Shown piece after piece: positions 8,059 to 43,296 of a stretch of DNA of 64,000 bases (the stretch's first letter is position 1; each line of letters opens with the position of its first letter). Source of the stretch: Candidatus Margulisiibacteriota bacterium (GTDB taxonomy: Bacteria; Margulisbacteria; Termititenacia; Termititenacales; Termititenacaceae); assembly GCA_031274525.1 (NCBI GenBank), contig JAISQA010000025.1, positions 1,294-65,293 on the forward strand. Reading direction: 5' to 3'. The translations under genes and the position numbers were made by a program. Under the pieces are notes generated by a model. It did no database searches. It was given only the letters and a program-made list of their open reading frames with translations, and was not told the origin of the DNA.

Positions 8059-8257
8059 CGTCTTTTACTTCCTTTCTTTTACGCCTGCGTCCAATGGCCC
8101 TGGTCGGGTCTGTACCATGGACGTCTTTAATAGCCTTTGCCGCTACCAGTTTCGCGTAATATTCCTGCGTGGCCTTACAAATCGTCGGTTTTATTTCGTT
8201 TGGCAGATTAGATGCCTGTATTTTGGCAATCACCAGAGTTAAATCAAAAAATAACAT
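8051..8257 (-). CDS. Hypothetical small basic phage protein (68 aa)
   Basis: ORF in the operon. C-terminal RRRKRKEVKDDE. Confidence 0.3.
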   Translation of the reverse strand: MLFFDLTLVIAKIQASNLPNEIKPTICKATQEYYAKLVAAKAIKDVHGTDPTRAIGRRRKRKEVKDDE

Positions 8258-8261
8258 ACTC

Positions 8262-8528
8262 TCACCCCTTTTCGTTTTTAGCTTTTTCCAGAATATCTTT
8301 GATATGGGAAACCATTTGCTGTTGACCTATTTTTGTAAAAGTAAAATTCACATTATCATAGCTGGGAAACCCGTTTCCGCTGAACCATTCCAGATATTCA
8401 ATAACTCCCTTACCGGCATCAGAATTGAAGACCTTTAAAACCTTAGCGCGGACGTCCAGCGCCCATTGTGCCCTTTCCGTCATTCTATTCTGGCCATTCC
8501 CCGTTATATTATGGTTGTTTTTCTGCAC
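8262..8528 (-). CDS. Hypothetical phage protein (88 aa)
   Basis: ORF in the operon immediately downstream of the portal gene. Confidence 0.35.
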   Translation of the reverse strand: MQKNNHNITGNGQNRMTERAQWALDVRAKVLKVFNSDAGKGVIEYLEWFSGNGFPSYDNVNFTFTKIGQQQMVSHIKDILEKAKNEKG

Positions 8529-10095: not shown

Positions 10096-10096
10096 T

Positions 10097-10450
10097 TTAT
10101 CCTAACTGGTTGGTTAATGATGGCATTGGGTAGGGGTTGACGCTTTCCGTTAAACTCGGCGCGCTGGTATAATTGGTCTTATAGTCGGTGATAGTTTGTT
10201 TCCTTTGTTTTAAAATATCCCCCCTGCGGCTTTCTTCCGCCAGTATCATGCTTCTTATGCGGGTAACATAATCATCGTACCGGGACTTAGTAATCCCGAC
10301 ACCGCCCTTGAGGGTAATATTAAAAACGGGTAAATCAAGCTCACGGGCCCTCTCGGTGAGCTCCTGTGCTTCGCCGGTAGGGTTCCATATTACCTCTTTC
10401 TTTTCCCAGTAATAGGTGGGTGGGCTTGATTTATTGTAATGTAATGGCAT
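10097..10450 (-). CDS. Hypothetical phage protein (117 aa) between terL and portal
   Basis: ORF coupled to the portal gene. Confidence 0.4.
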   Translation of the reverse strand: MPLHYNKSSPPTYYWEKKEVIWNPTGEAQELTERARELDLPVFNITLKGGVGITKSRYDDYVTRIRSMILAEESRRGDILKQRKQTITDYKTNYTSAPSLTESVNPYPMPSLTNQLG

Positions 10451-10496
10451 TTTCGTTTTTTATTATATTGCACCAATAAATCTGTCAAGTTTTATT

Positions 10497-11837
10497 TCAG
10501 AAAAATCTACCATTCCACTTCTTGGCTTTAAGTTTAGAAATTTTACTCCCGGACATCTCCATCATAGCAATAAGCGAGAAAGCATCGGCGGCATGGCTCG
10601 TCCAGTCATGAAAAGGAGTATCTTTAAATCTCTGTCTGTTCTCGTCATAGCCCCGGCGGTATTGCTTCAATGCCTCATAACCGGCTTCCGTTGTATCTTT
10701 ATTAAAATACACTCTCGACAAAATAGCCCTTGTGCGCTGTATCGCGCCATAAATATCATTGCGCCTTGGGTAAATCTTTATAGAGCGGCGGCCTAAATTC
10801 TTTAACTGTTGCTCAATTGTAAGGGCTCTGTCCCCGGACGTCATCTGCCTGTGAGCTCCGTCGTGCGGGATATGGTCTGTCTGGTAAAGATAACCTTTCC
10901 CCTGCAAGACGGCAACATAATGACCAAGCGCATACCCGTCATTTTCATAATAATCTATAACCCTTATTTCCTTGTTGATAAACTGGACAAACCAGATAGC
11001 CGTGCTGTCCGAAATGCCTAAATCCCAAAAAGTGTGAACCGGATACCCGGCATCGTGAGGAAACTTACCGTAATTAGTCTGTCTGTACTGGTCTAAAATA
11101 TCGGAATAATAAGAGCCAACCAGCGCACCGGAAAAACTACAGTAATATTCCTGCTGGATAATTTCCTCCATTTTACCCCGGCTTCTTTCCTCCTGGAGCA
11201 TATCCTCTGACACAATCGGCAACCCATTGTCATCAACGGTATCATTAATGGTCTTGAGGTCGGCAAAGTATTTATCGTGATTATTCAGCCATTCGAACAT
11301 ATCCTTGGCATGGTTAGAGCCCCTCGGCGTCGTATTAAAAACAACGAACCCGCGTGTCTCTTTCAGCATCGGCTCAATCGCAAGGTCAAAAAAACTCGGC
11401 TTATGAAGCGCGTATTCGGAAATTATCGCGCCCTGTAAACCGGCCCCCACGCGCTTATCGTACCTGTCGCCGCCAATCAGCGATATAATTGAGCCATTCT
11501 TGAAGTAAATTTTCATGGAATGATCATCAAGACGCTTAACTACTTCTCTGGGAATTAAGTCAAGATAACGCCTGCCGTCCGCGGTTATGCCTTCCCAGAT
11601 AGCATTGCGCGCCTGCTGTGCCTCCGGGAGGGCAAACCAGTAATTGCCAACTTTTTCTATAGCCTTGGCCGCGAGAAATTGCAGGCAAAATAAATCCTTG
11701 CCAGCGCGCCGGTGCCAGACCAGCATCGCCATATATTTCGCATAATGGTCTACGCCTTGATGAAGTTTATTCCAGGCATCTTTCTGGTATTTACGAAATT
11801 TAATTGTCGGAAATTTTATTTCTTTTGAGCTACTCAA
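10497..11837 (-). CDS. terL: Phage terminase large subunit
   Basis: Walker A-like WHRRAGKD near the N-terminus. Size is 446 aa. It overlaps terS by 8 nt and lies upstream of the portal gene. Confidence 0.7.
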   Translation of the reverse strand: MSSSKEIKFPTIKFRKYQKDAWNKLHQGVDHYAKYMAMLVWHRRAGKDLFCLQFLAAKAIEKVGNYWFALPEAQQARNAIWEGITADGRRYLDLIPREVVKRLDDHSMKIYFKNGSIISLIGGDRYDKRVGAGLQGAIISEYALHKPSFFDLAIEPMLKETRGFVVFNTTPRGSNHAKDMFEWLNNHDKYFADLKTINDTVDDNGLPIVSEDMLQEERSRGKMEEIIQQEYYCSFSGALVGSYYSDILDQYRQTNYGKFPHDAGYPVHTFWDLGISDSTAIWFVQFINKEIRVIDYYENDGYALGHYVAVLQGKGYLYQTDHIPHDGAHRQMTSGDRALTIEQQLKNLGRRSIKIYPRRNDIYGAIQRTRAILSRVYFNKDTTEAGYEALKQYRRGYDENRQRFKDTPFHDWTSHAADAFSLIAMMEMSGSKISKLKAKKWNGRFF

Positions 11838-12273
11838 GGTTTTTTTCTATTTTGATAGTAAGCTGGCCGAGTTCCGCATCAACCTTCTCTTTCCATAAGT
11901 CCGGTTGTCTCGTCTTCAGCCAGTAGATTGCGGCTGTAGTGTCCGGCGGAAAATACGCTTTTTTTTCTGTTTTTATTACGCTGCCCTTATGGACAAAAAC
12001 ATCTTCTATTTTTGCATTAAATCCAGTTGCTTTTTTATATAGAGAACTGGCAACTTCCGCGTCCGCCTTTACCCGTCCGGCTTTTATGGCCTCACCAAAC
12101 GCCGGGCGATTTTTTATCCAGTCAAAAATTACACGGTCTTTTACCTCAAAAAAATCTGCTATCCGGGAAACAGTAAAGCCGCCAAGAGCGAGTTTTCTGA
12201 CCTGCTCGGCAAATTCTGGCTTATATTTCTCCACAACATTTCGCAGAGAGCCCTTACCTTTAATTTTTACCAT
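11830..12273 (-). CDS. terS: Putative phage terminase small subunit (HTH-containing)
   Basis: N-terminal HTH (GGFTVSRIADFFEVKDRVIFDWIK). C-terminal AAIYWLKTRQPDLWKEK motif is typical of a TerS family. Position is immediately upstream of terL. Confidence 0.5.
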   Translation of the reverse strand: MVKIKGKGSLRNVVEKYKPEFAEQVRKLALGGFTVSRIADFFEVKDRVIFDWIKNRPAFGEAIKAGRVKADAEVASSLYKKATGFNAKIEDVFVHKGSVIKTEKKAYFPPDTTAAIYWLKTRQPDLWKEKVDAELGQLTIKIEKNLE

Positions 12274-12299
12274 GATTAAAGGTTATCACAACTATAGAT

Positions 12300-12316
12300 T
12301 TGTCAAGTATTGACAA
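12300..12316. promoter_or_regulatory. Perfect palindromic operator-like site TTGTCAA-gta-TTGACAA overlapping the -35 element
   Basis: 7-bp perfect inverted repeat with a 3-bp spacer in the divergent terS / xis-int intergenic region. Confidence 0.5.
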
Positions 12317-12338
12317 CTAATCAGCAGTGTGTTATACT
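12310..12338 (+). promoter_or_regulatory. Consensus sigma70-type promoter (TTGACA-17-TATACT) driving the xis-like/int genes
   Basis: TTGACA at 12310..12315, a 17-nt spacer, TATACT at 12333..12338, then an AAAGGGG RBS and ATG at 12361. Confidence 0.6.
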
Positions 12339-12360
12339 ATAAAAAGAAAGGGGTAAACAA

Positions 12361-12558
12361 ATGGAAGGGAAACGGGGTGGCGCAAGACCTAATTCCGGCG
12401 GTGCGCGGCCGGGTGCAGGAAGAAAAAAGGGCTGGCGAAAGCCGGAGGCAGAACGCAAAACGCGCGTTGTATGGGCCAGGTTACCCGAACCACTTTATGC
12501 CGTCTGGCTGAAACTCGGTGGGGCAACATGGTTAAGGGAGGTGCTGGAAAAACAATAA
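12361..12558 (+). CDS. Small basic protein (65 aa), putative DNA-binding / recombination directionality (Xis-like) factor
   Basis: Gly/Arg/Lys-rich N-terminus (GGARPNSGGARPGAGRKKGWRK). Immediately upstream of the integrase and translationally coupled to it. Confidence 0.35.
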   Translation: MEGKRGGARPNSGGARPGAGRKKGWRKPEAERKTRVVWARLPEPLYAVWLKLGGATWLREVLEKQ

Positions 12559-12580
12559 AAAATTGGTATGGAGGTTATGT

Positions 12581-13588
12581 ATGCTTTTCAAAAAAACTCT
12601 AAAATCCTATGCGGAAAATTTATTCAACCCTAATGGTAAATGGCGGAAAAACCGCGAAAGCAAAGGCTGGAATTTAGTAGATAAGGCTATTGCCGACAAG
12701 AACGCCCTTGTGAGAAATCATATTATTCCACTTTGGGGCAAAAGACAGCCGGATAAAATATCAATAAAAGAGATTAACGAAAAGCTCTACACACTCGACT
12801 TATCCAATGCCACAAAAAATAAAATACTCGTATGTCTCAATGATATTTTCACCTACCTAGCAGAACAGGAATTTATTAAAAGAAATCCAATTGTAGAAAT
12901 TTCCAGATTTTCCGACCGGCCCGTACTTCACCGGGGCGCATTAAGCCCGGAAGAAATAGATATATTATTTCCGCAATCACACGCAGAACTGCTTAAAATA
13001 TGGGGTTCCGAGATGTATGCCTGTGCATTTCTCGTTCTAAAAGATACCGGAATGAGACCGGGAGAATTAAGAGCTCTACGGTGGGGGGATTGGTATCCAG
13101 AGCACAGATTTATCCCGGTAACAAAAGCGATAGAAGCAAGCAAACGCACTAAAATTAAAAGCACAAAAACCGGGACAACAAAACCCGCGATTATTTCAAA
13201 ATTCACGGCGGCGGAACTTAACAATTATCGGGATAAAATTAAAGCCCTTCCCGAAAACTTTATTTTTATTTGCAAAAGTGGTTTACCGGTAAGTGATAGT
13301 ATTTTAAGTAAACGTTTTCGGCGGGGAGCCAGTCGCGCAGGATTAAACAGGCCAGAAGTTACTCCGTACTGGCTTAGATACACGTTTAATACGCGCATGT
13401 TAGAGGTGATGCCAGATGAGACCGTCCGTAAGTTAATGGGGCACGCTACCCCGGCAATGACCAAGCGTTATAGAGATGCGGACATAGCGTCCCTAAAACG
13501 AGAAGCACAAAAAATATCGCCGCTATACCCGGAAAGTTATACCATTACCCCCGCACCTGAAGACCTCCAGCTGGCTTTTGGATTCTAA
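12581..13588 (+). CDS. int: Tyrosine-type site-specific integrase
   Basis: Probable ATG at 12581 with a GGAGG RBS (the track ORF starts at TTG 12563). C-terminal catalytic region has LRHTFNT-like ...LRYTFNTRML... and ...GHATPAMTKRY... It is adjacent to a tRNA gene. Confidence 0.85.
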   Translation: MLFKKTLKSYAENLFNPNGKWRKNRESKGWNLVDKAIADKNALVRNHIIPLWGKRQPDKISIKEINEKLYTLDLSNATKNKILVCLNDIFTYLAEQEFIKRNPIVEISRFSDRPVLHRGALSPEEIDILFPQSHAELLKIWGSEMYACAFLVLKDTGMRPGELRALRWGDWYPEHRFIPVTKAIEASKRTKIKSTKTGTTKPAIISKFTAAELNNYRDKIKALPENFIFICKSGLPVSDSILSKRFRRGASRAGLNRPEVTPYWLRYTFNTRMLEVMPDETVRKLMGHATPAMTKRYRDADIASLKREAQKISPLYPESYTITPAPEDLQLAFGF

Positions 13589-13591
13589 AAA

Positions 13592-13620
13592 CTTGACTCT
13601 CACGGAAAGTCGGTGTACTA
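13592..13620 (+). promoter_or_regulatory. Candidate promoter (TTGACT-17-TACTAT) for tRNA-Pro, supplied by the element's end
   Basis: ttgactctcacggaaagtcggtgtactat lies about 45 nt upstream of the tRNA. Confidence 0.3.
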
Positions 13621-13661
13621 TAACTCCGAATTTCAACAAGGTATTTTTTTAGGTCGGTACT

Positions 13662-13694
13662 CGGTTTCGGGGTGTGGCGCAGCTGGTAGCGTGC
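13662..13694 (+). repeat. attR: 33-bp direct repeat overlapping the 5' end of tRNA-Pro
   Basis: Identical to 6147..6179. Confidence 0.8.
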
Positions 13695-13743
13695 CTGTTT
13701 CGGGTACAGGAGGTCGTCGGTTCGAGCCCGGCCACCCCGACCA
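13668..13743 (+). tRNA. tRNA-Pro (anticodon CGG)
   Basis: CGGGGTGTGGCGCAGCTGGTAGCGTGCCTGTTTCGGGTACAGGAGGTCGTCGGTTCGAGCCCGGCCACCCCGACCA. Acceptor CGGGGTG/CACCCCG, anticodon loop TTCGGGT, T-loop TTCGAGC, encoded CCA. Confidence 0.9.
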
Positions 13744-13950
13744 AATTAAACAAAACTATTTCCCAAAATAGTGGGGGGATATTCCATTCTTCCGAGACTA
13801 AATATACCCTAGTTGCCGTGTGTTTTATAAGAACTTTTTTCGGGTTGATTAAAATAGTCTAATAATTTCCGTATAGACATATTCTGTGTTTCAGCATACA
13901 CTTGGGCCTGTATAGTATTTTTCATTTTTATGCAATCAAATCGTTTTTCT

Positions 13951-14427
13951 TTAGTCGCCGTCATATTTCAATAACTCCCTTGGATTTCTAACCTCAATAA
14001 TAGCATATCCAGATTTAAGATTAACCCCATTATAACCCCTTATTCGGTCTAAATTTACTATATGCTTAAAATTCCAGCTTGCCAATACATCTGCTTTATA
14101 GATTGTTGCCAAAGCAATATGTCTACAATCATCAATACTAGTTTTTCCTACTACTTTCTCCCTAACATATTTATCGGCTAGTTTTATGGCTTCCTCTGTT
14201 AATTCAACATGCTCAAAAGAATTTGGATCATATTTATCTAACAGTGTTAAGACATTTTTCGGGGCTTTTTGTAATTCTTGTTCTAGTACACTTGAAATTA
14301 TAAAAATAACTTCTTTATTTTTCAGTCGTTCAAATAGTGCCTTTGTTTCACTGGCAAACTCGTCGTCAAAATAACCGCCAACTATCGATGTATCGATATA
14401 AATTCTCGTGACCATAGTCTTCTCCAA
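13951..14427 (-). CDS. PIN-domain protein (VapC-like ribonuclease fold), orphan
   Basis: N-terminal ...RIYIDTSIVGGYFDDEF... matches the PIN start with conserved Asp. Later acidic residues (ISSVLEQE, DDCRHIA) are consistent. Low-GC gene between two tRNAs. Confidence 0.6.
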   Translation of the reverse strand: MEKTMVTRIYIDTSIVGGYFDDEFASETKALFERLKNKEVIFIISSVLEQELQKAPKNVLTLLDKYDPNSFEHVELTEEAIKLADKYVREKVVGKTSIDDCRHIALATIYKADVLASWNFKHIVNLDRIRGYNGVNLKSGYAIIEVRNPRELLKYDGD

Positions 14428-14461
14428 TCAGCACAGAAAATCTTTCCACTTTTCAGGACAC

Positions 14462-14537
<76 letters not shown>

Positions 14538-14606
14538 ACAAAGTACTTCATTATATTTTTATCCGGCGTTTTAGGCAAATCTGATATATGCTAAAATTCC
14601 TGTGTT

Positions 14607-16241
14607 ATGTTAATCTCGCTTTACCTTGAGAATTATGCCCTGATCAGCCAGCAGACCATTGAATTTAGCGAGGGATTCAACGTCATTACCGGCGAGACCG
14701 GCGCCGGTAAATCGATCATCGTCAACGCGCTGGCTCTCATCATGGGCGAGCGGGCCTCGACGGATTTTATCAAAGCGGGCAAACAAAGAGCGGTGCTCGA
14801 AGCCGTATTTGACATCCGCGGCCGGCAGCTGGAAGGCTATGCCGCTGAGGAAGTGCTTATTATCACCAGAGAAATATCGCTCAACGGCCGCAATCTGATC
14901 AAAATAAACCACCGCGTCGTCACCCAGAATGAGCTGAAAAAAGTCTCGCGCTATCTGATCGATATTCACGGTCAGCACCAGCATCAGCTCCTTATCGACC
15001 CGGGCAATCATCTGGAAATACTTGACCTTTTCACGCAGGCCGGACTGCGCACGGACTGCCGGCTGGCTTTTCAGGAGTACCACACGCTGAAAAAAGAACA
15101 CGATCTGCTCCTGCAAAGCCGCGATCTGCGGCAGGAAGAAAAAGACTTTCTGGGTTTTCAGCTGAGCGAGCTGGAAGCAGCGGAATTGCAGCCGCGCGAA
15201 TACACGGAACTCCAGACGGAAAAAAGCCGGCTGGATTCTTTTACGGAGATAGCCGAAGCCATTCACAGTGTGGCCGGCAAAACCGCCGACACGCAGAATG
15301 ATCTGCGTGCCAATAAACACAAGCTGGGACAGGTAGCCGCTAAAGAAACCGCCCTGCAGGCGCTGGCGGACAAAGCCGAAGCGCTGGAGCTGGATTTTGA
15401 GGATTTTCGCGAAAACCTGAGCGCTTACGCAAATCAACTGGAATTTTCGCCGGCGCGGCTGAATGAAATAAACGAGCGGCTGGATCTGCTGAACAAACTG
15501 AAACGCAAGCATCTCAAGCAGCTTGAGGCAGAAGATATCGCCGACCTGCTTATCAAAAAACGGGATCAGCTGCGGGCCCTGCTGTCCGGGCTGGAAGACA
15601 CCGACGAGCATCTGGCCGCGCTGCAAAAAAATCTGGAGCGCGCGGAAGAAACTTATCTGGCTAAGGCCGGGGAGCTATCCCGGCACCGGCAGGAAACCGC
15701 CGGTCAGCTGGAGACCCGGATCAGCGCCGCCCTGCGCGCGCTGCGTATGCCCCATGTCCAGTTCAAAATCAATTTTACACCGAGCGCCTACGCCGCGGAC
15801 GGTCTGGACGCCGTGGAATTTCTGATCTCCGCCAATGCCGGTGAACCGCTCAAGCCGCTGGCCAGAATAGCTTCCGGCGGCGAGCTTTCCCGGGTAATGC
15901 TGGCTATCCGCAAAATACTGGCCGAACACGAACAAAGCTCCTCCATGATCTTTGACGAGATAGACGCCGGTATCGGCGGCGAGACCGCGCTGGCGATCGC
16001 CGAGGCCATTCAGGCCATTGCCACCAGACATCAGGTCATCTGCATCACGCATCTGGCGCAAATCGCGGCCAGAGCCAGCTATCATCTGCGGGTGGCCAAA
16101 TCCAGCGCGGAAAACACCACGACCGTGACGGTCACTCCGCTGCGCAAAGCGGAGCGCGAGCTGGAAATCACCCGCATGCTGTCCGGAAAAATGACCGAAA
16201 GTTCCGCCGCGCACGCGCAGGAATTACTGGAGCAGCTTTAA
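14607..16241 (+). CDS. recN: DNA repair protein RecN
   Basis: MLISLYLENYALI start. Walker A GETGAGKS. Long coiled-coil middle region. C-terminal SGGELSRVMLAI signature and DEIDAGIGG Walker B. Confidence 0.9.
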   Translation: MLISLYLENYALISQQTIEFSEGFNVITGETGAGKSIIVNALALIMGERASTDFIKAGKQRAVLEAVFDIRGRQLEGYAAEEVLIITREISLNGRNLIKINHRVVTQNELKKVSRYLIDIHGQHQHQLLIDPGNHLEILDLFTQAGLRTDCRLAFQEYHTLKKEHDLLLQSRDLRQEEKDFLGFQLSELEAAELQPREYTELQTEKSRLDSFTEIAEAIHSVAGKTADTQNDLRANKHKLGQVAAKETALQALADKAEALELDFEDFRENLSAYANQLEFSPARLNEINERLDLLNKLKRKHLKQLEAEDIADLLIKKRDQLRALLSGLEDTDEHLAALQKNLERAEETYLAKAGELSRHRQETAGQLETRISAALRALRMPHVQFKINFTPSAYAADGLDAVEFLISANAGEPLKPLARIASGGELSRVMLAIRKILAEHEQSSSMIFDEIDAGIGGETALAIAEAIQAIATRHQVICITHLAQIAARASYHLRVAKSSAENTTTVTVTPLRKAERELEITRMLSGKMTESSAAHAQELLEQL

Positions 16242-34094: not shown

Positions 34095-34169
34095 GGCCTC
34101 ATCGTCTAATGGTCAGGACACGAGATTCTCAATCTCGTAATAGGGGTTCGATTCCCCTTGAGGCTGCCA
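34095..34169 (+). tRNA. tRNA-Glu (anticodon CUC)
   Basis: GGCCTCATCGTCTAATGGTCAGGACACGAGATTCTCAATCTCGTAATAGGGGTTCGATTCCCCTTGAGGCTGCCA. Anticodon stem CGAGA/TCTCG, loop TTCTCAA, encoded CCA. Confidence 0.8.
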
Positions 34170-34243: not shown

Positions 34244-35257
34244 ATGTATAAAATACCAGAAATTACCTTTATCGACCTATTCGCCGGTATTGGCGGTATG
34301 AGAATGGCTTTTGATAAAGCTGGTTGCAAATGTGTATTTACTTCTGAATGGAATAAATATGCTCGGATAACCTATAACGAGAATTTTGGTGAACAACCTT
34401 ACGGCGATATTACCAAGATTAATGAAAATGATATTCCAGACCATGACATTCTGGTTGCCGGATTTCCCTGTCAGCCATTTTCTATTGCTGGTGTTTCTAA
34501 AAAAATCAGTCTTGGCAGAAGTCACGGTTTTTTAGATAAAACACAGGGAACTTTGTTTTTTGATGTAGCCAGGATCATTAAACAAAAAAGGCCAAAAATT
34601 GTTATGCTTGAAAATGTCAAAAATCTGGTCTCGCATGATAATGGTAATACATTTAAGACTATAAAAGATACACTGGAGTCGCTGAATTATACTGTGTCAT
34701 TCAAAATTTTGGATGGACAGCATTATGTTCCGCAACACAGAGAGCGTATCATTATTGTTGGATTAAACAGAGATACTTTCGGGAATGATATTGTATTCCA
34801 GTTCCCTGCATTGCCGAGTAAAGAATATAAGATAAAAGATATTTTAGAAAAGAAAGTTGATGTAAAATATACACTTTCTGACAAACTCTGGAAGTATTTA
34901 CAGAACTATGCCAAAAAACATCAGGAAAATGGTAATGGGTTTGGTTATGGGCTGGTTAATCTAAATAAGGTTTCCAGAACATTAAGTGCTCGTTATTATA
35001 AAGATGGTTCTGAAATTTTAATTCCACAGAGAAATAAAAATCCCCGACGACTTACACCCAGAGAATGTGCCAGATTGCAGGGATTTCCCGATACATTCAA
35101 AATAGTTGTGTCTGATACGCAGGCATATAAACAGTTTGGCAACTCAGTTGCTATGCCATTGATACACGATGTGGCAAAATCAATTGTGGACATATTAGCT
35201 TATACCAGACCGAGAAAAATACGCGAGGCTGAACCAGAACCAGTATTAGTGGGATAA
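34244..35257 (+). CDS. DNA (cytosine-5)-methyltransferase (Dcm-type)
   Basis: Motif I FAGIGG. Motif [10 protein letters not shown]. Motif VI LENVKNL. Motif [13 protein letters not shown]-terminal [13 protein letters not shown]...FGNSVAMPL. Confidence 0.9.
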
Positions 35258-35383
35258 TTATATGAATTTGAAACAGGCTTCATCTACTACACCCAAAATC
35301 AAGAAAAGGAGTCAATTCAGGGTACGGTCTGGATTTCTGGCAAATCTATACCATAATAATGAGATAATTGATCTTAATACAAT

Positions 35384-36031
35384 ATGATCGATGAAAATGT
35401 TATTTCCAGTGAAATAATAAAACATCACCGGGAATATTTCAGGGATTTTCCCTGGAGAAAAAATATTTCTCCATATAAATTATTGATTGCAGAGTTAATG
35501 CTCAGGCGGACAAAGGCCAAGCAAGTTATTCCTGTTTATAATAATTTCATAGAAAAATATCCAGATATAAATTATCTGGGTTTAGCAAGATTATCTGACA
35601 TTCAGAAAATCATCCAGCCTCTTGGTTTACACTGGCGTGCGGAAAGTTTTATTGATTCTGTAAATTATATCCAAATAAAGCATAATGGCCAATTTCCTGA
35701 TACGGAGCAAGAAATTAAAAATATTCCGGGGGTTGGTAATTATATTACCGGCGCTATATTAACAGTTTGTTTTAAAACCAAATATCCTGTAATAGACAGT
35801 AATATCGCTAGATTTATAAATAGATATTATGGACTTGGCCTGTCAGGAGAAATTAGAAGAAACAAGCAGATACTGGTAAAAGCAAATGAATTGTTTTCTA
35901 TTAAAAATACAGAAAACTTATTATTCCCTTTAGTCGATTTTACTGCACTCATTTGCAAGCCAAGAAAACCGATTTGTGAAAATTGTTTTCTGAAAGAAGA
36001 TTGTATGTATTTTCAACATTTCCTGCTGTAG
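35384..36031 (+). CDS. HhH-GPD superfamily DNA glycosylase, MutY/Mig-like (predicted T:G mismatch glycosylase), 4Fe-4S
   Basis: HhH-GPD loop IKNIPGVGNYITGAIL...VIDSNIARF with catalytic Asp and no EndoIII-type Lys. C-terminal FCL cluster CKPRKPICENCFLKEDC (C-x6-C-x2-C-x5-C). Located immediately downstream of the C5-MTase. Confidence 0.7.
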   Translation: MIDENVISSEIIKHHREYFRDFPWRKNISPYKLLIAELMLRRTKAKQVIPVYNNFIEKYPDINYLGLARLSDIQKIIQPLGLHWRAESFIDSVNYIQIKHNGQFPDTEQEIKNIPGVGNYITGAILTVCFKTKYPVIDSNIARFINRYYGLGLSGEIRRNKQILVKANELFSIKNTENLLFPLVDFTALICKPRKPICENCFLKEDCMYFQHFLL

Positions 36032-36040
36032 TCTTTAATC

Positions 36041-36090
36041 CCATTTTGCCCGCCTGCTTGGGCTTCGCCCCCAAAATTTTTCGGCGGGAC
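36041..36090. repeat. Left ~50-bp GC-rich inverted repeat (IR-L)
   Basis: Its reverse complement gtcccgccgaaaaattttgggggcgaagcccaagcaggcgggcaaaatgg matches 42817..42866 at 47/50 positions. Confidence 0.75.
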
Positions 36091-36097
36091 GGCGGGA

Positions 36098-38195
36098 CTA
36101 TGAAACCAAATTCTTTTCTAAAATTTCAAAATGCTTCGGGTCTGATTCTTTCACGATATTCAGTAAAATCTTGATTGCATCCTTGCTCTCTCTTTTGTCT
36201 TTATGCTCGATTGTGCTTGTTGGATCGGAATTATGAGAAAATTCATTGACCAACTTGTATACTTTCCCCGCGGCTACAGTACTAATTTTCTCATCAAGAT
36301 TATTGATGTTTTTGATCAATACTTCCATTTTAGATTTTTGATCGCCTGTTGTCGGTATTTTAAAATCTACAAAAATATCAAAAAATCTTCTCGCCATATT
36401 TCCTATCGTATAAAAATCCTCATATTGTGTATCTTGTTTTTCCGAAAATTCTTTGAGTTTGGCAAACAAGAAATGATATTCAGATTTATAGTTTCGTAAT
36501 GTTTTATCAAGTGTAATAATTTTTGCTTTTCTTACATCCGATTTAATAAAATTTTCTACCATGAAAAATTCGCAAGGATTTGGTTTTTCTGTCTTATTTT
36601 CGGACTCTAATTTTTCATTATCTTTTTTCGTTGAATTATTCTTATTGATAAACCATTCTTTGACCAAATTGAAAAGTTGAAAATTGTGTGTGGAAATAAA
36701 AAGTTGCCCGACTTCCTTGAAATGTGTGTTTATCATTGAAAAACAGTGCTAAATGAAATTTGAATCAAAGCTAGAAATTGGATCGTCAATAAAAATAATT
36801 CCTTTTGATTTATCAAAATCGCCTTCACCGACCTTAACAACAAAATATGAAAAAGCGATTGCGGTTTTCTCTCCTTCACTCAAATTTTTTGCTGGCTTTC
36901 CGTCTCTCTTTATCGTATAGCCTTTGTTGTCTCCGTCCAATGCAAGCGCTATTTCTTTTCTGCCAAAAAATCCTTCTAGCTGTTTATTGATAGCTATAAT
37001 CGCTTTGCCTATATTTGAAGTTTGGTTTTCAAGTTCTGCAATGTCGGAATTATTTTTATTAATCGCATCAAGGGCTTCTTTTTCATTTTTTAATGATTCT
37101 TCCAAATCGGCTCCCATTTTTTTATAGTCCTGACCTGCCAAGGCAGTCGCGATTGAATTCAATTCGAGTTTCTCGCGAGCACTTGAAACCTCATTTGCAT
37201 GATTTTTTGCTTTTTCATTATGCTCATTGATAATTTTGTTCAATTCCAAAATTACGCTGTTGCAAGAAGACAAAAAATCCACTGGTTGTGTAGGACTTGA
37301 AACAACTACAAGCGGATTGTCATATTTTTCTTGAAGCGATTTTAGCGCTTCTTCGATCCAAGTATTTATTTTCTTGATAACTTCGTTAAGTTTCTTTGCC
37401 TGACTTGCGTATTTATCTTTTAGATCGGGGTAAAGATCATCGTTTTTTGTCGCAATTTCTAATTGTCTTACTTTCAAAATTTCACTTTTCAGGTTCGTGA
37501 TTGTATTTTGTAAGTCCTCATAGTCTTTGCTGAGCAGTCTGTGTTTTACCTGCCTCGCTTTTGCTTATTGCTTCGTATTTTTTCTTATCTTCGGCAGATA
37601 AGAGTTTGTCGGTAAAATTATCAATGCCAATAGTATTGATTTTGTTTTCAGCTTTTGTCTTGTTGTATGACTTGTCAAAAAGGATGTTTGCAATTTCTCG
37701 CCCCAAACCAGTCAGAAAAGTATTTTTTGTTTCTTCTTTTGTCGATTTATCTTTTTTTGACTGTTCGTATGTTTTGCCAGGAGTGATTTTATCCAGTTTC
37801 AACTGTTCAAGCCGTTTTTTGCTCTCAATATCTTCTTTGCTTACATAAATAATCGGATTGCATGAATCCAAAGGATCAAAAGAAATATTTTCATCTATAA
37901 AATCTTGGTTGAAAACCTTGATCGGCAAAACATTGGTGGCAACATCTGTATTTTTTACGGTGGTTCCGTCATCTGTTTTTATTTCGAATTCGCCATTTTC
38001 GGGATACTGTTTGAATTTGTCTTTATCGTAAGTACATTTTTTCTCGCAACTCGCAAAAACACGGGAAATGGTTGTTTTTCCGCTTCTATTCCAGCCATAG
38101 ATCAAATTGAATCTTTTAAAATCAGAAAGCTCTGTTTTCCAAATAAAATTATGAAATATGCCGTAATCTTTGAGTTTTGAGATTTTAGTAATCAT
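36098..38195 (-). pseudogene. AAA_13-family ABC-type ATPase (PrrC/RloC-like coiled-coil ATPase), disrupted by one frameshift (~37520-37560) and one in-frame TAG (36749..36751)
   Basis: Track ORFs 37518..38195 (Walker A YGWNRSGKTT), 36749..37477 (coiled coil, LSEGEKTAIAFSYF signature, Walker B/D-loop IIFIDDPISSFDSNFI then TAG) and 36098..36736 (H-loop QLFISTHN) are collinear pieces of one ~680-aa gene. Pieces 2 and 3 are in the same frame across the TAG. Confidence 0.7.
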
Positions 38196-38203
38196 GTTAA
38201 AAA

Positions 38204-39721
38204 CTAGGCAGTTACCTCATTTAAAGTCGTTTTCATCTCAAGGCTATTAACAAATTTATCAATATCCGAGATTCTCACTTCCAAACTATCTTTTTTGATA
38301 AAATCAAAATAACGTTCAGTATCAATAAAAGATTTTGGCGAGATAAACACGGAATATGATTTTGTGCCTCTTTTGACATATTCTTCAAGATGGCGATGTA
38401 TGGAAAACGACTCTCTGATATGTTGTTGTGTTCCAGTAAGTAAAGTTACTTCAACCAAAACTGTGTCTTTTTCTTCTAAACATTCAATATCGGGACTTCC
38501 GCCAGATGCAAAACTTGTTGGCAGTCCTTCATCGTCGGATATAAAGTTAGGTTTCACGATAACATTCGGTAATTTTTTAAGGATGGCCAAGGAAGTCAAA
38601 AATTCTAATCGCAAGGGCTGTTCAATAACTTTCAAAATATCATCACTTGAAGATTTTTTCTGTGCTAAATTAAACAGTTCGTTTTTAATAGATTCCCAAG
38701 CATAATGATCAACCCATTTTCCCAATTCCGCTTTTGTAGTTTTCGCTGGGGCTTTAAATACGGTAAGTGTTGAGATTAAATCGTGATCAACTTGTCCGAT
38801 GTACTCAAAAAATTCTTTTTCCGTTTCAAATTCTTTATAGGAAATATAATTTTTCAAAATATAATTTACGGCGGTAGATTCTTTTGTGTTTATATCTATA
38901 AAACGACCACCGCCACGCAAAGAAAGTAAACCAGTTAAACGCATTTTTCGTATAAAATCGTCAGGGTAATCACCGAGAATTGAATTATCATCTCGCTTTG
39001 TTTCGTTTAGCAATTTATAGCAAAGATCCAAAATCACTTCATCGCTCGGCGTATAACCATGTTTTTTGCGTAATTTTTTGATTTCTCGATATAAACTTTC
39101 GGCATTATCATTTTGCCAACACAGCAACAGAGGTATTTCTGATCTGGATATACCAGCCCTCTTGTATGCTGGGTCATTATTCAAAAGTTTTATGGTTTGT
39201 ATAAGTAAAATAAGTGGAACATTTTTATTTAAAACGCGACGAAATGGATTTTGGCGTTGATATTTCGCAAAAGCATTTGCAAAAACCATTAACTCATTTT
39301 CTGGCTTTTCCTTATCCAATAACATTTTACCGCTTTCGGAAAATTTTATTTCTTCATTTTGCCAATACCAAACAAAGCCAAGTTCTTTAGCAATTTTGAA
39401 CCAAGTATCAAACCGCGATGGCCAACCTTTTTCAAAACCCGCTTCTTTATGGCTTTGTGGATTGTCGGAAAATACCTTTTCGGTTTCAGTTTCGCTCAAT
39501 TCAATTTCATTCTTCCGTTTATCTTTTATAGCCGAAGACACTTTCATCGGCTGATATAATCCTTTTTGAATTAAAGATTTGGCGACTTTATCAATAATTT
39601 CGTTAGTTAAAATTTCGCCGTCATATTCCGCAAGCACAGTCAGAAAATCCTTCAATCGTTCAGGATTTCTCATTGTCGTTGTAAATAGTAATGGTTTGTA
39701 TTCAGATTGTCGTTTATTCAT
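38204..39721 (-). CDS. Type IIS restriction endonuclease, AlwI family (N.BstNBI/PleI/MlyI-like)
   Basis: C-terminal catalytic region ...SPDIECLEEKDTVLVEVTLLTGTQQHIRESFSIHRHLEEY...YSVFISPKSFIDT parallels N.BstNBI ...PDMEIIYEDFIVLGEVTTSKGATQFKMESEPVTRHYL...YCLFIAPEINKNT. 505 aa. Confidence 0.7.
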   Translation of the reverse strand: MNKRQSEYKPLLFTTTMRNPERLKDFLTVLAEYDGEILTNEIIDKVAKSLIQKGLYQPMKVSSAIKDKRKNEIELSETETEKVFSDNPQSHKEAGFEKGWPSRFDTWFKIAKELGFVWYWQNEEIKFSESGKMLLDKEKPENELMVFANAFAKYQRQNPFRRVLNKNVPLILLIQTIKLLNNDPAYKRAGISRSEIPLLLCWQNDNAESLYREIKKLRKKHGYTPSDEVILDLCYKLLNETKRDDNSILGDYPDDFIRKMRLTGLLSLRGGGRFIDINTKESTAVNYILKNYISYKEFETEKEFFEYIGQVDHDLISTLTVFKAPAKTTKAELGKWVDHYAWESIKNELFNLAQKKSSSDDILKVIEQPLRLEFLTSLAILKKLPNVIVKPNFISDDEGLPTSFASGGSPDIECLEEKDTVLVEVTLLTGTQQHIRESFSIHRHLEEYVKRGTKSYSVFISPKSFIDTERYFDFIKKDSLEVRISDIDKFVNSLEMKTTLNEVTA

Positions 39722-39725
39722 AAGT

Positions 39726-40631
39726 TTAATAGTTAGTAATCAAAACTTCCTTAATTATCTTTTTGCCGTTGTTATGATAATTAATGTAGTTGCTTTCTAT
39801 TTTGTGCACCTTATATTTTTTCATCCATTCCAGCAGTATATCATTTTTACTTCCATTATAATGAGTAACATTTGATAGGGCAAATTTAACGCCTTTCTTG
39901 TCTAAAACATCAATCATTTTTAATAAATCGGCTTCCGATTTTTGATTCCACAATTTATTATATTCGCTGGCAGATATTAAATATGGAGGATCTAAATATA
40001 CAAAATCATTTTTTAAATATTTTTTGTCTGAAAAAAACTTTTTAAAACCTTTGGAGGTTATAGATATTTTTTTATCCTGAACAAAATCAAAATAGCCATT
40101 CAAGGCATTAACTACATTTTTATTAAAATCAACATTACCAACAGGCAAATTAAATTTACCCCCGCCATTAAATCGCAACATTCTATTAAATCCATAAATA
40201 AGTAGAATATACAAAATTAGGGGGTCATTTTTCTGATAATTATTTACACATAATCTCAATTTATCGTATCCATCTTTATTAAATCTTGCGTAATAAGTTT
40301 TTTTAAATTCCTTTTTTAACGAATCGGGAACAATATCTTTTTTGTATGAATGCGAAAATTTATATTTGTGGATTATTCTTTCAGCATCCTTAAAAAATTT
40401 TTCTGGATTTTTTGAGCTGGCAATTAGAAGTGTATGGATATTGATCAGATGCTTATCTATGTCATTGAGAAAATATTTTTTTGCTTCAATATTCAAAAAT
40501 ACCGTGCCTCCACCGACAAAAGGTTCATAAAAATTATTTATTTCTTTGGGAAATAAATTTACCAGTTGTTTCATCAGCTTGTATTTATCGCCGACATAAA
40601 ACAGAGGCGATCTTTTTATTTTATTACTCAT
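39726..40631 (-). CDS. N6-adenine DNA methyltransferase, D12 (Dam) class - M1
   Basis: FYVGDKYK...EPFVGGGTVF motif I. DPPY motif IV (VYLDPPYL). Overlaps the upstream MTase by 4 nt and precedes the REase gene. Confidence 0.85.
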   Translation of the reverse strand: MSNKIKRSPLFYVGDKYKLMKQLVNLFPKEINNFYEPFVGGGTVFLNIEAKKYFLNDIDKHLINIHTLLIASSKNPEKFFKDAERIIHKYKFSHSYKKDIVPDSLKKEFKKTYYARFNKDGYDKLRLCVNNYQKNDPLILYILLIYGFNRMLRFNGGGKFNLPVGNVDFNKNVVNALNGYFDFVQDKKISITSKGFKKFFSDKKYLKNDFVYLDPPYLISASEYNKLWNQKSEADLLKMIDVLDKKGVKFALSNVTHYNGSKNDILLEWMKKYKVHKIESNYINYHNNGKKIIKEVLITNY

Positions 40632-42436
40632 ATTTTTGCTTTCGTTACAAACAAGTATTCTTTGTGATTATTAAAATTAGTATTGCCAGCATTAAAGTGT
40701 CTATAATTTTTTTCAAAAACTTTGGTTGGTCCTTTCTTTTGCAGAATCTGCTCAATCTCTTGGAGTGTGATTTTATTTTTTGAGGAATTACTTTTTGAAT
40801 CGTAAGTGTTATTGTATGAAACGACCAAATATTTAGCGTCAAGATCTCTCGCGAGTTCCGCAAATTTATCTTTGGCGTTAGCTCGGCAGTAGTCGCTCAT
40901 ATTTTCTGGCTCTGGCTTTAATGCTACGCCGAAAAGTTTTGGGTTATCCCATTTAGTCAAAGTTTCAAGTACATGATAAAACCTGCTATACTGCCTTGAA
41001 TTGTAAGGTGGGTCAATATAAACGACATCAGCATTTATTTTTTTTGCCAGATCATTTGTATCTTCTTGGAAAATTGATATTTCTTGCGTGTCTATTGGGT
41101 CAATCGGTTTCATAAAAAAACTATCATTGATAAATTCCTTTTTGAAATAAGCATCAAAATGTCCAACCGTATTGGCGATTTTATCGGCGGTATAAAGCAA
41201 CGAAGCGATTAATATGTAATATTCTCGTTCGGTTAAATTTTTTTTATTTTTTTCTATATTTTCGCGAATGAAGCCGATAATTTTTGCTGAATTTTTGCTG
41301 AAAAATTTACCACCAAAATTTTTGGAAAAATAATTTTCCTCCAAGTCGTCGCCATAAATATTATTATAGCTTTTTATAATATTATCTATTTTATTTTTAT
41401 CCCATGCCTCGTTTCCGAAAAAAGCTCGATATATCGCATAATTTGAATGTAGAAAGTCGTTCAATAAAATCTTTTCAAAGTGTTTGGTTGCAACGGCGGA
41501 TACAACACCAGTCCCCGCAAAAATATCCGCAAATGAATTTCCTTTACATTCTTTGTTAATTATGGAAAAAATCCACTCAATCAATTTATGTTTATTTCCG
41601 ATATATCTGCGATTATGTAATTGGAGATGATTTTCTTTCACCTGTGGAATATAAAAATAATTTTCTCGGATTTTTTCGGCGGCTATTTCATAGGATGGTC
41701 GTTCGGTTTCAAACATGGCAAAAAGAGTACCCTGTATTCCGTCTGCGACATAATCAATGTTTGCTTTTTGTTTATTTAATTTTTCGTAAAAGCTGTAATG
41801 ATTATTTTGAGAAATGATAATAAAATCAATAACTGGTATTCCCATTATTTCGCCAGCCTGTATGATTTTTTCAATAATTTGATTGTCTTTTTCGCTTGGT
41901 GAAAAATCGCCCGAAGGGTGATTATGAACCAAAACAACACTGGCGGCGTTTAATTCCGTTGCAGGATAAAAAATTTCTCTCGGATGTAGTAGTGCCTTAT
42001 CTAAAAGACCGATACTCACAATTTCTTTTTTTAACAAAACATTTCGTGCGTTTAAATAAAGACAAACTAAATGTTCTTTTTTCTTGTCTCTTAAATCATA
42101 AGTGAGAGATAAAATATCTTGAGAATTTTTTATAACAATTTCGTTGATTTTGTTTTCGTCGTAAAATCTTTTTACCAATGAAATTGCGGAAGCAATTTGC
42201 AATGCTTTTGCCTGTCCGATTCCTGAAATTTCTAAAAGATTATCAACAGTTATATTCAAAAAGTTTTTACCAAATTTTCTGATGATATTTTCAGAAAGTT
42301 GTCTAACATTTTTCCCTTTGATTCCACTACCCAAAAGAATTGCCAAAAGATCACTTTTTAAAAGTGCGTCAGCCCCTTTTTGTAAAAACCGTTCTCTTGG
42401 GCGATCTATTTTGGGAATATCTTTTATTTTTGTCAT
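40628..42436 (-). CDS. Fusion protein: N-terminal RadC-like JAB domain (HhH + JAMM) joined to C-terminal D12-class N6-adenine DNA methyltransferase - M2
   Basis: Residues 1-220 have DRPRERF...LLAILLGSGIKGKNV...GIGQAKALQIASA plus VLVHNHPSGDFSPSEKDNQIT (RadC/JAB). Residues ~270-602 have RRYIGNKHKL...ADIFAGTG and VYIDPPYN (Dam-type). Confidence 0.75.
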   Translation of the reverse strand: MTKIKDIPKIDRPRERFLQKGADALLKSDLLAILLGSGIKGKNVRQLSENIIRKFGKNFLNITVDNLLEISGIGQAKALQIASAISLVKRFYDENKINEIVIKNSQDILSLTYDLRDKKKEHLVCLYLNARNVLLKKEIVSIGLLDKALLHPREIFYPATELNAASVVLVHNHPSGDFSPSEKDNQIIEKIIQAGEIMGIPVIDFIIISQNNHYSFYEKLNKQKANIDYVADGIQGTLFAMFETERPSYEIAAEKIRENYFYIPQVKENHLQLHNRRYIGNKHKLIEWIFSIINKECKGNSFADIFAGTGVVSAVATKHFEKILLNDFLHSNYAIYRAFFGNEAWDKNKIDNIIKSYNNIYGDDLEENYFSKNFGGKFFSKNSAKIIGFIRENIEKNKKNLTEREYYILIASLLYTADKIANTVGHFDAYFKKEFINDSFFMKPIDPIDTQEISIFQEDTNDLAKKINADVVYIDPPYNSRQYSRFYHVLETLTKWDNPKLFGVALKPEPENMSDYCRANAKDKFAELARDLDAKYLVVSYNNTYDSKSNSSKNKITLQEIEQILQKKGPTKVFEKNYRHFNAGNTNFNNHKEYLFVTKAKI

Positions 42437-42443
42437 ATCCTGT

Positions 42444-42650
42444 TTATTTAATTAAATCCTCGATTGTAACGCCAAGTGCTTTCGCTAATTTTGCCATGAT
42501 AAGTACGGACGGCTTTTTAATTACATTACTCTCAATTTTTGTCAGAGTAGTATATTTAACGCCTGATTTTTTGGCAAAATCTTCCTGCGATAAGCCTATC
42601 TTACCTCGATATTTCTTTATATTTTCTCCAATGTTTATTTCCGTTGCCAT
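42444..42650 (-). CDS. Controller (C) protein, XRE-family HTH regulator of the R-M operon
   Basis: 68 aa. ...IKKYRGKIGLSQEDFAKKSGVKYTTLTKIESN... is a classic C-protein HTH. First gene of the R-M operon. Confidence 0.75.
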   Translation of the reverse strand: MATEINIGENIKKYRGKIGLSQEDFAKKSGVKYTTLTKIESNVIKKPSVLIMAKLAKALGVTIEDLIK

Positions 42651-42676
42651 AATTTCAATTATTTGATAGTATTATT

Positions 42677-42694
42677 ATGAAGTGATATACTTTC
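42677..42694 (-). promoter_or_regulatory. Possible C-box-like imperfect palindrome upstream of the C gene
   Basis: TGAA-n-ATAT-n-TTCA symmetry (tgaagtgatatactttca) about 30 nt upstream of the C start. Confidence 0.2.
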
Positions 42695-42816
42695 AATATA
42701 ATGATACCAAATTTTAAGAATATGAGCAAATAAATAAAGGGAGTTCCTTTGATATAACGCGCGCACGGGTGGGTGGGGCAAGCGTTATGCTTCTTTTATC
42801 TCCTCTTTTGTTTTCT

Positions 42817-42866
42817 GTCCCGCCGAAAAGTTTTGGGGGCGAAGCCCAAGCAAGCGGGCAAAAAGG
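42817..42866. repeat. Right ~50-bp GC-rich inverted repeat (IR-R)
   Basis: gtcccgccgaaaagttttgggggcgaagcccaagcaagcgggcaaaaagg; the inverted partner is at 36041..36090. Confidence 0.75.
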
Positions 42867-43103
42867 AAGGGGGTTGGGGGGAATTCCGCTTTTTCTTTGC
42901 GAAATCAAATTGCGGACAGCCCCGCCACCTGTCTGAATACCTGGAAGGCAGAACCCGCAGAAAAATACTTTTTTCATTAAAAGAAGAAAAAATCGGGCAC
43001 GCGCAAAATGAAAAGAGCAAAGAGTATTTTGCTGTGGTGTGGTGAGCTTGTCAAGCAGTGGCGGGGCTGGCTTCCTTAGTGGGGGTTTTGCTCAAAGAAT
43101 GTT

Positions 43104-43136: not shown

Positions 43137-43211
43137 AGCGTGGCGCTGACTGCGCGCGTGTTTCCTTGCGCACGCAGGCGTCGCTCGCGCATTGGCGCGA
43201 GCGGAGAGGGC

Positions 43212-43296
43212 GAGATTCGAACTCGCGGTACCTTGCGGTACACAACATTTCCAATGTTGCACCATCGGCCACTCGGACACCTCTCCGTAAAGAAAG
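43212..43296 (-). tRNA. tRNA-Ser (anticodon GGA)
   Basis: Reverse complement reads GGAGAGGTGTCCGAGTGGCCGATGGTGCAACATTGGAAATGTTGTGTACCGCAAGGTACCGCGAGTTCGAATCTCGCCCTCTCCG. Long variable arm. Anticodon loop TTGGAAA. CCA is not encoded. Confidence 0.85.

Follow-up and report, generated by a model that had tools for sequence, protein, structure and literature searches.

What is a complete RadC protein doing at the front of a DNA methyltransferase? The question is raised by a locus in the 64,000-nucleotide stretch of Candidatus Margulisiibacteriota DNA analysed here (contig JAISQA010000025.1, positions 1,294 to 65,293; hereafter the window), where positions 38204-42650 are filled by four minus-strand open reading frames (ORFs). 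In operon order, these are a controller-type gene (C), a RadC-methyltransferase fusion (RadC-M2), a second methyltransferase (M1), and an endonuclease (R) of a restriction-modification (R-M) system. Few bacterial proteins that lack a known function are as widespread as RadC ('RadC, a misleading name?', as cited in earlier surveys), and a 2025 review treats its function as unresolved and notes no work on RadC-like domains fused to DinG (PMC11981726). We find that the head of RadC-M2 belongs to a family of portable modules carried by three families of R-M methyltransferases (MTases) and followed by a conserved Q-x-x-L-F peptide. This peptide may be a ligand of the bacterial sliding clamp.

The RadC part of the fusion is complete and in frame, as the preliminary description of this locus had proposed from its HhH region and JAMM motif. 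With 209.9 bits, the N-terminal 219 amino acids (aa) pass the cut-off of 180 set for the NCBIfam RadC equivalog NF000642, and the RadC part scores 201.9 bits on TIGR00608 (cut-off 133.85). The zinc-binding residues E154 (within HPRE, aa 151-154), H171, H173, S181, and D184 are all present. In an alignment of 66 diverse fusions, E154, H171, H173, and D184 are invariant, which removes the concern that the catalytic residues might be degenerate, and the JAMM residues are conserved across 40 fused and stand-alone RadC domains. By sequence, the head should be catalytically competent. Between a model of the JAB domain and the RadC crystal structure 2QLC, the TM-score is 0.90 and the root-mean-square deviation is 1.6-1.7. 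A full-length AlphaFold2 (AF2) model built from a shallow alignment is unusable for domain packing (mean predicted local distance difference test score, pLDDT, 57; predicted TM-score, pTM, 0.41), and a head-only model from a deeper alignment gives the RadC part a pLDDT of 79. In sequence and fold this is a RadC protein, sharing HhH and JAB domains and the E...HxH...S...D residues with canonical stand-alone RadC (E. coli YicR type; Chlorobium 2QLC). It differs from the stand-alone form of about 220 aa in being fused in frame to a 330-aa MTase and in carrying the Q-x-x-L-F peptide, which stand-alone RadC proteins lack, and the MTase-fused heads form clades of their own. The MTase half is matched separately by the PADLOC MTase_II model PDLC03373 (1.8e-126, aa 269-600 only).

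Could such a fusion be a mis-assembly, or a decaying accident without function? The source is a metagenome-assembled genome (MAG), and annotators have each named one half of the protein, NCBI as 'DNA repair protein RadC' and JGI as 'adenine-specific DNA-methyltransferase'. Either name hides the other half, and this may be one reason why the architecture went unremarked. Against such an artefact, the reading frame is continuous, with no sign of a missing stop, and the identical 602-aa protein is present at NCBI (MDR1997095.1, from an 87-kb contig of a Candidatus Margulisbacteria MAG). The same architecture is found in all 120 of the best 90%-identity protein clusters (77-94% identical) and recurs in more than 160 clusters from independent assemblies. 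Nor is it sporadic, as 38 of 45 loci in species-representative genomes carry the fusion, mostly with M1 and R after it. With the usual caveats about MAG binning, the record titles span Patescibacteria lineages, Gammaproteobacteria, Nitrospirae, Planctomycetia, Atribacterota, Deltaproteobacteria, and others. Compared with 16 orthologues, the ratio of nonsynonymous to synonymous substitution rates (dN/dS) is 0.03-0.16 for HhH, 0.05-0.15 for JAB, and 0.02-0.07 for the MTase domain, with dS ranging from 0.4 to more than 1.5 in the same comparisons. Judged by these ratios, the RadC head is functional and under strong purifying selection. The shared clusters, the 38 loci, the dN/dS values, and the invariant JAMM residues refute an artefact or neutral accident, to which we attach practically no weight. 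Apparent insertions of about 680 bp in the fusion gene of some loci (L013, L014, L016, L027, L028, L037, and L038) proved to be an artefact in which the adjacent M1, weakly similar to M2, had been joined to the match.

Nor is the fusion peculiar to one operon. A domain and neighbourhood survey of the kind proposed in the preliminary description, covering 1.84 billion 50%-identity representatives with Pfam scans and two further homology searches, recovered HhH+JAB heads 41-62% identical to that of RadC-M2 on three MTase families. The D12 fusions comprise the window family and P0122 (41% identity), with AlwI as the neighbouring nuclease. About 45 clusters are C5 fusions, which neighbour either HpaII and Vsr with an upstream HTH_3 gene (L048, L050, L051) or MTaX1 (L046, L047), and 6 clusters are N6_N4 fusions next to EcoRII-C (L054-L057). 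An R-M operon was present at every RadC-MTase neighbourhood examined, with at least four R-M types represented. A neighbour-joining tree of RadC domains places the fused heads in two groups, with D12 and C5 partners intermixed in each. At three loci (L031-L033), the head is 89-93% identical to that of the window, while the MTase is just 43-45% identical, the AlwI-family nuclease is a different one, M1 is absent, and the similarity breakpoint falls inside the linker. As judged from these comparisons, the head moves between MTase families. Related M2-M1-R operons contain an M2 without RadC (L039, the L. lactis plasmid L052, and L040, in which M2 is joined to M1), and most of the more distant MTases have no N-terminal extension at all. 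Because these related operons hold the same MTase without the head, methyl transfer itself probably does not need it.

Earlier described RadC fusions, to a DinG/Rad3 helicase, DnaG primase, or ArdC-N (Iyer et al. 2011, 2017), likewise place the RadC JAB domain N-terminal to a DNA-handling enzyme. In the passages on RadC of these surveys (PMC5512222, PMC3239186), the partners named are HhH, ArdC-N, primase, and DinG, with no MTase among them, whereas three MTase families are found here. Our literature search returned nothing on RadC-MTase fusions or on bacterial MTases that bind the clamp, although absence there is no proof of absence overall, and the earlier remark that the function of such a fusion is unknown agrees with the literature searched. 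The RadC-MTase architecture is widespread rather than a one-genome oddity, and apparently undescribed.

The company of the C5 fusions bears on a first explanation for the head, namely that RadC is a nuclease or other nucleic-acid hydrolase acting on R-M-linked lesions or nicks, much like Vsr beside C5 MTases. The JAB fold has been grouped, in the part of one survey that treats it (PMC3239186), within a deaminase-like fold that acts on nucleotides. A fold search with the head returned RadC 2QLC first, followed by JAMM peptidases and by weak matches to double-stranded DNA deaminases; the last of these would suit a repair enzyme, although the search gave no new functional lead. HpaII-type operons with a RadC-C5 MTase, however, already hold Vsr, N6-methyladenine and N4-methylcytosine MTases make no known lesion that needs repair, and no nuclease activity of RadC has been reported (PMC11981726). 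A role in repair is therefore decidedly improbable.

Other modules occupy the position of RadC on homologous MTases. These include HTH_3 heads (P0124, P0129, P0204), AAA_21 heads, and LexA_DNA_bind+Peptidase_S24 heads. The last type is found on P0144, a D12 MTase, with S24 alone in P0127, and on two N6_N4 MTases, P0463 and P0521. The LexA-like heads on D12 and N6_N4 R-M methyltransferases are of interest in themselves and suggest damage-responsive control of some of these enzymes. Helix-turn-helix (HTH)-bearing MTases such as M.SsoII autoregulate. RadC-M2 resembles the HTH- and LexA-headed enzymes in bearing an extra N-terminal module at the same position on the same MTase families, and differs from the LexA-headed ones in using HhH and a metallo-hydrolase where they use an HTH and a Ser-Lys S24 peptidase. 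No HTH was found within RadC-M2 by Pfam; HTH and LexA heads occur only in its homologues.

This parallel raises the prospect that RadC is a switch equivalent to the LexA-like and HTH heads, tuning R-M expression or activity. When single-stranded DNA or damage signals under-methylation, for example, the target of cleavage by the head might be the Xre-type C protein, the endonuclease, or its own chain, in a manner similar to ImmA/ImmR. In addition to the shared position, an HTH_3 gene lies directly upstream in the window, L005, L017, and L021, and further upstream in L048, L050, and L051, and the closest structural relatives of RadC after 2QLC are peptidases (fold search; PMC11981726). HhH domains, however, bind DNA without sequence specificity, unlike operator-binding HTH heads, and at many fusion loci the 1.3 kb upstream contain no HTH gene. 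The Aravind group has also argued that the groove for the ubiquitin tail, present in peptidase JABs, is missing from RadC (PMC5512222). As a sensor or regulatory head would also leave the conserved Q-x-x-L-F peptide unexplained, we regard this role as rather unlikely.

The peptide, written around its core as DYVADGIQGTLFAMFE or NIDYVADGIQGTLFAMFETE in RadC-M2, directly follows the JAB domain in all three kinds of fusion, with the consensus D-Y-[VI]-A-[DE]-G-x-Q-x-x-L-F-[DE]-x-L. Q-x-x-[LIMF]-F occurs after RadC in 164 of 168 fusions, with positions 2 and 3 free to vary (at least 25 residue combinations). From the rest of the same proteins, about 0.002 occurrences would be expected per 55-aa segment, a background drawn from closely related sequences, with a plain composition estimate nearer 0.02. 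Among 15 sequences less than 70% identical, Q235 is conserved in 100% and L238 and F239 in 87%, compared with 13-47% for flanking linker positions. In the 66-sequence alignment, Q235 is as invariant as the catalytic residues, and the conservation of F239 is at least 90%. The alignments thus point to an island of conservation within a variable linker.

The core of the peptide is also found where RadC is not. RadC-less relatives carry VQGTLF (L035), MEIQRSFF (L040, L041), MSAAQLALF (P0181), or QLFLF (P0259), and C5 MTases without RadC carry QTGIF, QTGMF, or QLGLF. P0144 has QLPLF between its LexA head and the MTase, and further variants in the family are QLGLF, QLNIF, and QMGLF. Some proteins (P0281, P0282, P0215, P0424) have kept the HhH domain before the MTase and lost JAB, and all of these except P0424 have kept the peptide. 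The peptide appears from these comparisons to be constrained independently of RadC and of the MTase family.

In the unfused L040, L041, P0181, and P0259, the motif falls within the first 5-12 residues, as might be expected if RadC-M2 were a self-processing polyprotein in which JAB cuts the linker near DYVADG/QGTLF, freeing RadC and an MTase with an N-terminal Q-x-x-L-F. The conserved residues just upstream of the motif would be compatible with such a cut, and processing peptidases are known in multidomain proteins of mobile elements, according to the section of PMC5512222 that deals with them. Characterised JAB peptidases, however, cut after the Gly-Gly tails of ubiquitin-like proteins, of which there is no equivalent site here, and the existence of HhH-MTase variants without JAB (P0281, P0282, P0215, P0424) also speaks against self-processing. 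We consider it very unlikely.

A more plausible ligand for the peptide is the replication machinery. The bacterial clamp-binding motif is Q-phi-x-L-F, with the consensus QL[S/D]LF and with positions 1, 4, and 5 decisive (bioRxiv 10.64898/2026.05.27.728225). QGTLF in the window has the required Q, L, and F, with Gly in place of an aliphatic residue at position 2, so the match is good at the critical positions and imperfect at position 2. We propose, at a probability of about 0.4, that the head is an accessory that keeps the MTase, together with an active RadC hydrolase, on new DNA marked by the clamp. The head would have three parts, namely the HhH DNA-binding domain, the intact RadC JAB zinc hydrolase, and the Q-x-x-L-F linker peptide. 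The peptide would bind a further partner that bacteria conserve, with the beta sliding clamp (DnaN) as the most plausible candidate, and HhH would serve as a non-specific DNA anchor. Together, the two would keep the MTase and RadC on freshly synthesised DNA, such that the new strand could be methylated before the endonuclease cuts. Such a head would function in every host newly reached by the widely transferred cassette, the clamp being conserved among bacteria.

This arrangement would be a bacterial counterpart of the recruitment of DNMT1 by PCNA, where a maintenance MTase is tethered to the clamp by a short Q-containing peptide (PMC9690074). The resemblance is one of mechanism and no homology is implied, as the PCNA motif is Qxx[IL]xxFF and that of the beta clamp is Q-phi-x-L-F, and clamp binding by RadC-M2 is only predicted. 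Use of the clamp by mobile DNA has precedent, since the transposases of many insertion sequence families bind it (PMC4549789). As far as the surveys describe them, the other partners of RadC (DinG/YoaA-like helicases, primase, ArdC-N) act on replicating or incoming DNA, which fits a fork-associated role and does not prove it. More broadly, it is possible, although we say so only tentatively, that R-M methyltransferases of several families are recruited to the fork by a clamp peptide, with RadC a clamp-associated zinc hydrolase acting on new DNA or on bound proteins.

Several observations weigh against clamp recruitment. A Gly at position 2 is expected to weaken clamp binding (bioRxiv 10.64898/2026.05.27.728225). 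The conserved stretch DYVADGxQxxLFDxL is longer than a clamp motif, and the peptide, which lies between domains with a pLDDT of 24-37 in the shallow-alignment model and 71-74 in the deeper one, forms a small hairpin and helix in the latter rather than an extended disordered segment. Because the stretch is overlong and is modelled in this way at moderate confidence, it may be a structural element. In five of the six N6_N4 fusions, the motif reads Q-I-[TS]-L-S, with the Phe lost. One fusion is found in a MAG labelled Nanoarchaeota (L020), where no beta clamp is expected, although its 2.3-kb contig may be mis-binned. The proposal accounts for the peptide and the HhH domain and gives the JAB active site no specific job. 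Finally, the fusion counts given above do not represent independent events.

The system to which the fusion belongs can be classified from its remaining genes (Table 1). The C-M2-M1-R order on the minus strand was correctly described earlier, as was the tight coupling of the genes, with 7 nt between the C stop and the M2 start, a 4-nt overlap of M2 and M1, and a 4-nt gap between M1 and R. Domain matches likewise bear out the two D12-class MTases and the AlwI-family endonuclease, and NCBI names R 'AlwI family'. Both MTases are of the FxGxG type, with intact S-adenosylmethionine-binding and DPPY motifs (FAGTG and DPPY in M2, FVGGG and DPPY in M1). The locus has the RE_AlwI endonuclease and the two adenine MTases, presumably one per strand, expected of an AlwI-family system, and forms a complete R-M cassette of that family (type IIS-like) that is horizontally mobile. 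The AlwI, PleI, MlyI, and N.BstNBI/N.BspD6I systems and their unfused plasmid kin have the same arrangement of an RE_AlwI endonuclease after two D12 adenine MTases. L. lactis NZ_CP065734 (L052) shares the M2-M1-R order, with an R that is 30% identical over its full length; its M2 has a short N-terminal extension without the peptide, in contrast to the 270-aa RadC head in the window. The C gene and the bounding inverted repeats described below also set the window system apart from its AlwI-type kin. In a related AlwI-type system (L040, 8019-9986), M2 and M1 are joined in one polypeptide of more than 655 aa, without RadC and with the N-terminus MEIQRSFF, which indicates that the two-MTase arrangement can be a single protein.

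The recognition site is a different matter. The preliminary description expected a GAGTC-like site, and R does align with the GAGTC enzyme N.BspD6I, but in the catalytic domain only (aa 389-477, E 4e-10), and therefore the site need not be GAGTC or GGATC. The best PADLOC model for R is another REase_II model (Table 1), with the nicking-enzyme model far weaker (2.8e-33), and no REBASE-type names are found among the database records. GAGTC was dropped as the candidate site. Upstream of C, an alignment shows the DNA to be conserved with L005 and L021. A promoter and terminator scan of 35900-43000 was uninformative in this AT-rich DNA, with 29 promoter-like sites against 28.4 expected.

Table 1. 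Features of the RadC-M2 cassette, in window coordinates.
Feature	Position	Strand	Evidence and remarks
Left arm, 50-nt GC-rich inverted repeat	42817-42866		94% complementary to 36041-36090
C, controller-type Xre/HTH_3 protein, 68 aa	42444-42650	-	Pfam HTH_3, E 1e-16
RadC-M2 fusion gene, 602 aa	40628-42436	-	Pfam and NCBIfam domains
HhH domain UPF0758_N (PF20582), aa 4-78	42203-42427	-	E 5e-21; AF2 pLDDT 80-93
RadC JAB domain (PF04002), aa 102-219	41780-42133	-	E 1.8e-36; PDB 2QLC match E 2e-25
JAMM zinc motif HNHPSGDFSPSEKD, aa 171-184	41885-41926	-	Partner Glu154 at 41975-41977
Linker peptide DYVADGIQGTLFAMF, aa 228-242	41711-41755	-	Core QGTLF, aa 235-239 (41720-41734); candidate sliding-clamp-binding motif
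D12-class N6-adenine MTase domain, aa 278-602	40628-41605	-	PF02086 2.7e-36 (aa 278-531); FAGTG 306-310, DPPY 475-478
M1, Dam-family D12 MTase, 301 aa	39726-40631	-	TIGR00571 139 bits; PADLOC MTase_II 6.7e-107
R, AlwI-family type II endonuclease, 505 aa	38204-39721	-	Pfam RE_AlwI PF09491 1.6e-41; PADLOC REase_II PDLC03507 4e-130, full length
Decayed AAA_13 / PADLOC PDC-S06 ATPase gene, three ORFs	36098-38195	-	Starts 8 nt after R
Right arm, 50-nt GC-rich inverted repeat	36041-36090		Complementary to left arm

In addition to the linker peptide, two features were missed in the preliminary description, namely the inverted repeats that bound the cassette and a decayed AAA_13 gene coupled to R. The repeat occurs as two copies in the window, with none expected by chance, and its arms bracket C, RadC-M2, M1, R, and the AAA_13 gene. 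A Nomurabacteria contig (L005) carries a 90%-identical cassette between the same repeats, 67 nt long there, at 53-119 and 7110-7176. The ends of this 7.2-kb contig are inverted copies of at least 60 nt, and its host and that of the window are unrelated. No transposase was found inside the repeat-bounded cassette in either the window or L005. The operon lies within a 9-kb island of 0.30-0.36 GC between tRNA-Glu (34095-34169) and tRNA-Ser (43201-43286), in surroundings of about 0.55. Across loci, the cassette stays at 0.31-0.33 GC while host flanks range from 0.31 to 0.45, and reach 0.55 in this window. The AAA_13 gene, a candidate defence ATPase by PADLOC PDC-S06 with a weak PrrC-like match, is an intact 784 aa in L005. 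In the window, the Pfam match to AAA_13 is broken into three and lacks profile positions 180-314. The gene has lost 257 bp by deletion, and an in-frame stop separates ORFs b and c. Since this gene has decayed in the window and is intact in L005, within the same repeats and at constant GC, what moves is the cassette bounded by the repeats, and what is maintained is its R-M portion.

Such mobility might be taken to mean that RadC helps a selfish cassette to enter a new cell, by countering its defences or by processing incoming single-stranded DNA. An establishment aid of this kind would parallel the company that RadC keeps with ArdB and ArdC on mobile elements, as well as its place in competence regulons. 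The steady GC whatever the host flanks, the many phyla, and the repeats common to L005 are all in keeping with it, as are the RadC/ArdB modules and RadC-ArdC fusions on mobile elements noted in the parts of earlier work that cover them (PMC12458937; PMC3239186). The preliminary description had likewise noted that RadC/JAB proteins usually travel on such elements as stand-alone anti-defence or DNA-processing proteins. The fused RadC, however, is of the long, canonical chromosomal HhH+JAB type. The RadC of mobile-element modules (with ArdB/KlcA/ArdC, CbtA/CbeA) is short and JAB-only, and a scan of ORFs and domains found no anti-restriction genes or other such neighbours near the cassette. None of 72,556 plasmid and 50,697 phage records held the fusion, and the idea of a plasmid or phage anti-defence gene was therefore set aside. 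Moreover, a protein made from incoming DNA cannot shield that DNA before it is expressed, and the dS values of 0.4 to more than 1.5 reflect long vertical or slow histories and not only recent jumps. We consider an establishment role improbable.

Other genes near the fusion deserve mention. In about 13 of the 38 fusion loci (e.g., L007-L009, L011-L013, L016, L022-L024, L028), although not in the window, a DUF4357 gene immediately precedes RadC-M2 and ends 3-4 nt before the fusion gene starts. In L001 (7149-7997), it encodes 282 aa with a weak RAMA match and is the PADLOC candidate PDC-S14, and in L009, L022, and L024, it lies between C and RadC-M2. Next to the cassette in the window, a second low-GC module beside tRNA-Glu (34244-36031, plus strand) encodes a C5 cytosine MTase of the Dcm type followed by a 215-aa HhH-GPD protein. 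The latter is MutY/Nth-like, with an Fe-S motif, and matches the PADLOC 'type II nicking endonuclease' model (2.8e-36). The module has no endonuclease gene and looks like an orphan 5-methylcytosine MTase with a T:G-repair glycosylase in place of Vsr. Elsewhere, positions 8000-15000 have a GC of 0.42-0.49, compared with about 0.53 nearby, and contain tRNA-Pro (13668-13743) and tRNA-Gly (14462-14537). This region may be a second acquired island.

The survey reveals an N-terminal head that is portable among three MTase families and whose place is taken elsewhere by LexA-like or HTH heads. Here, RadC is joined to enzymes that are simple to read out, through methylation and protection from the cognate endonuclease, and the union is under strong purifying selection. 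Mutation of four residues, in a cassette of only four genes, is thus enough to test what RadC does. If the peptide does bind the clamp, selfish R-M cassettes would secure timely self-methylation through a host hub that is conserved across phyla. If the head does recruit its enzyme to the fork, the RadC-MTase head would be the first defined molecular context for a near-universal protein whose function has been unknown for decades.

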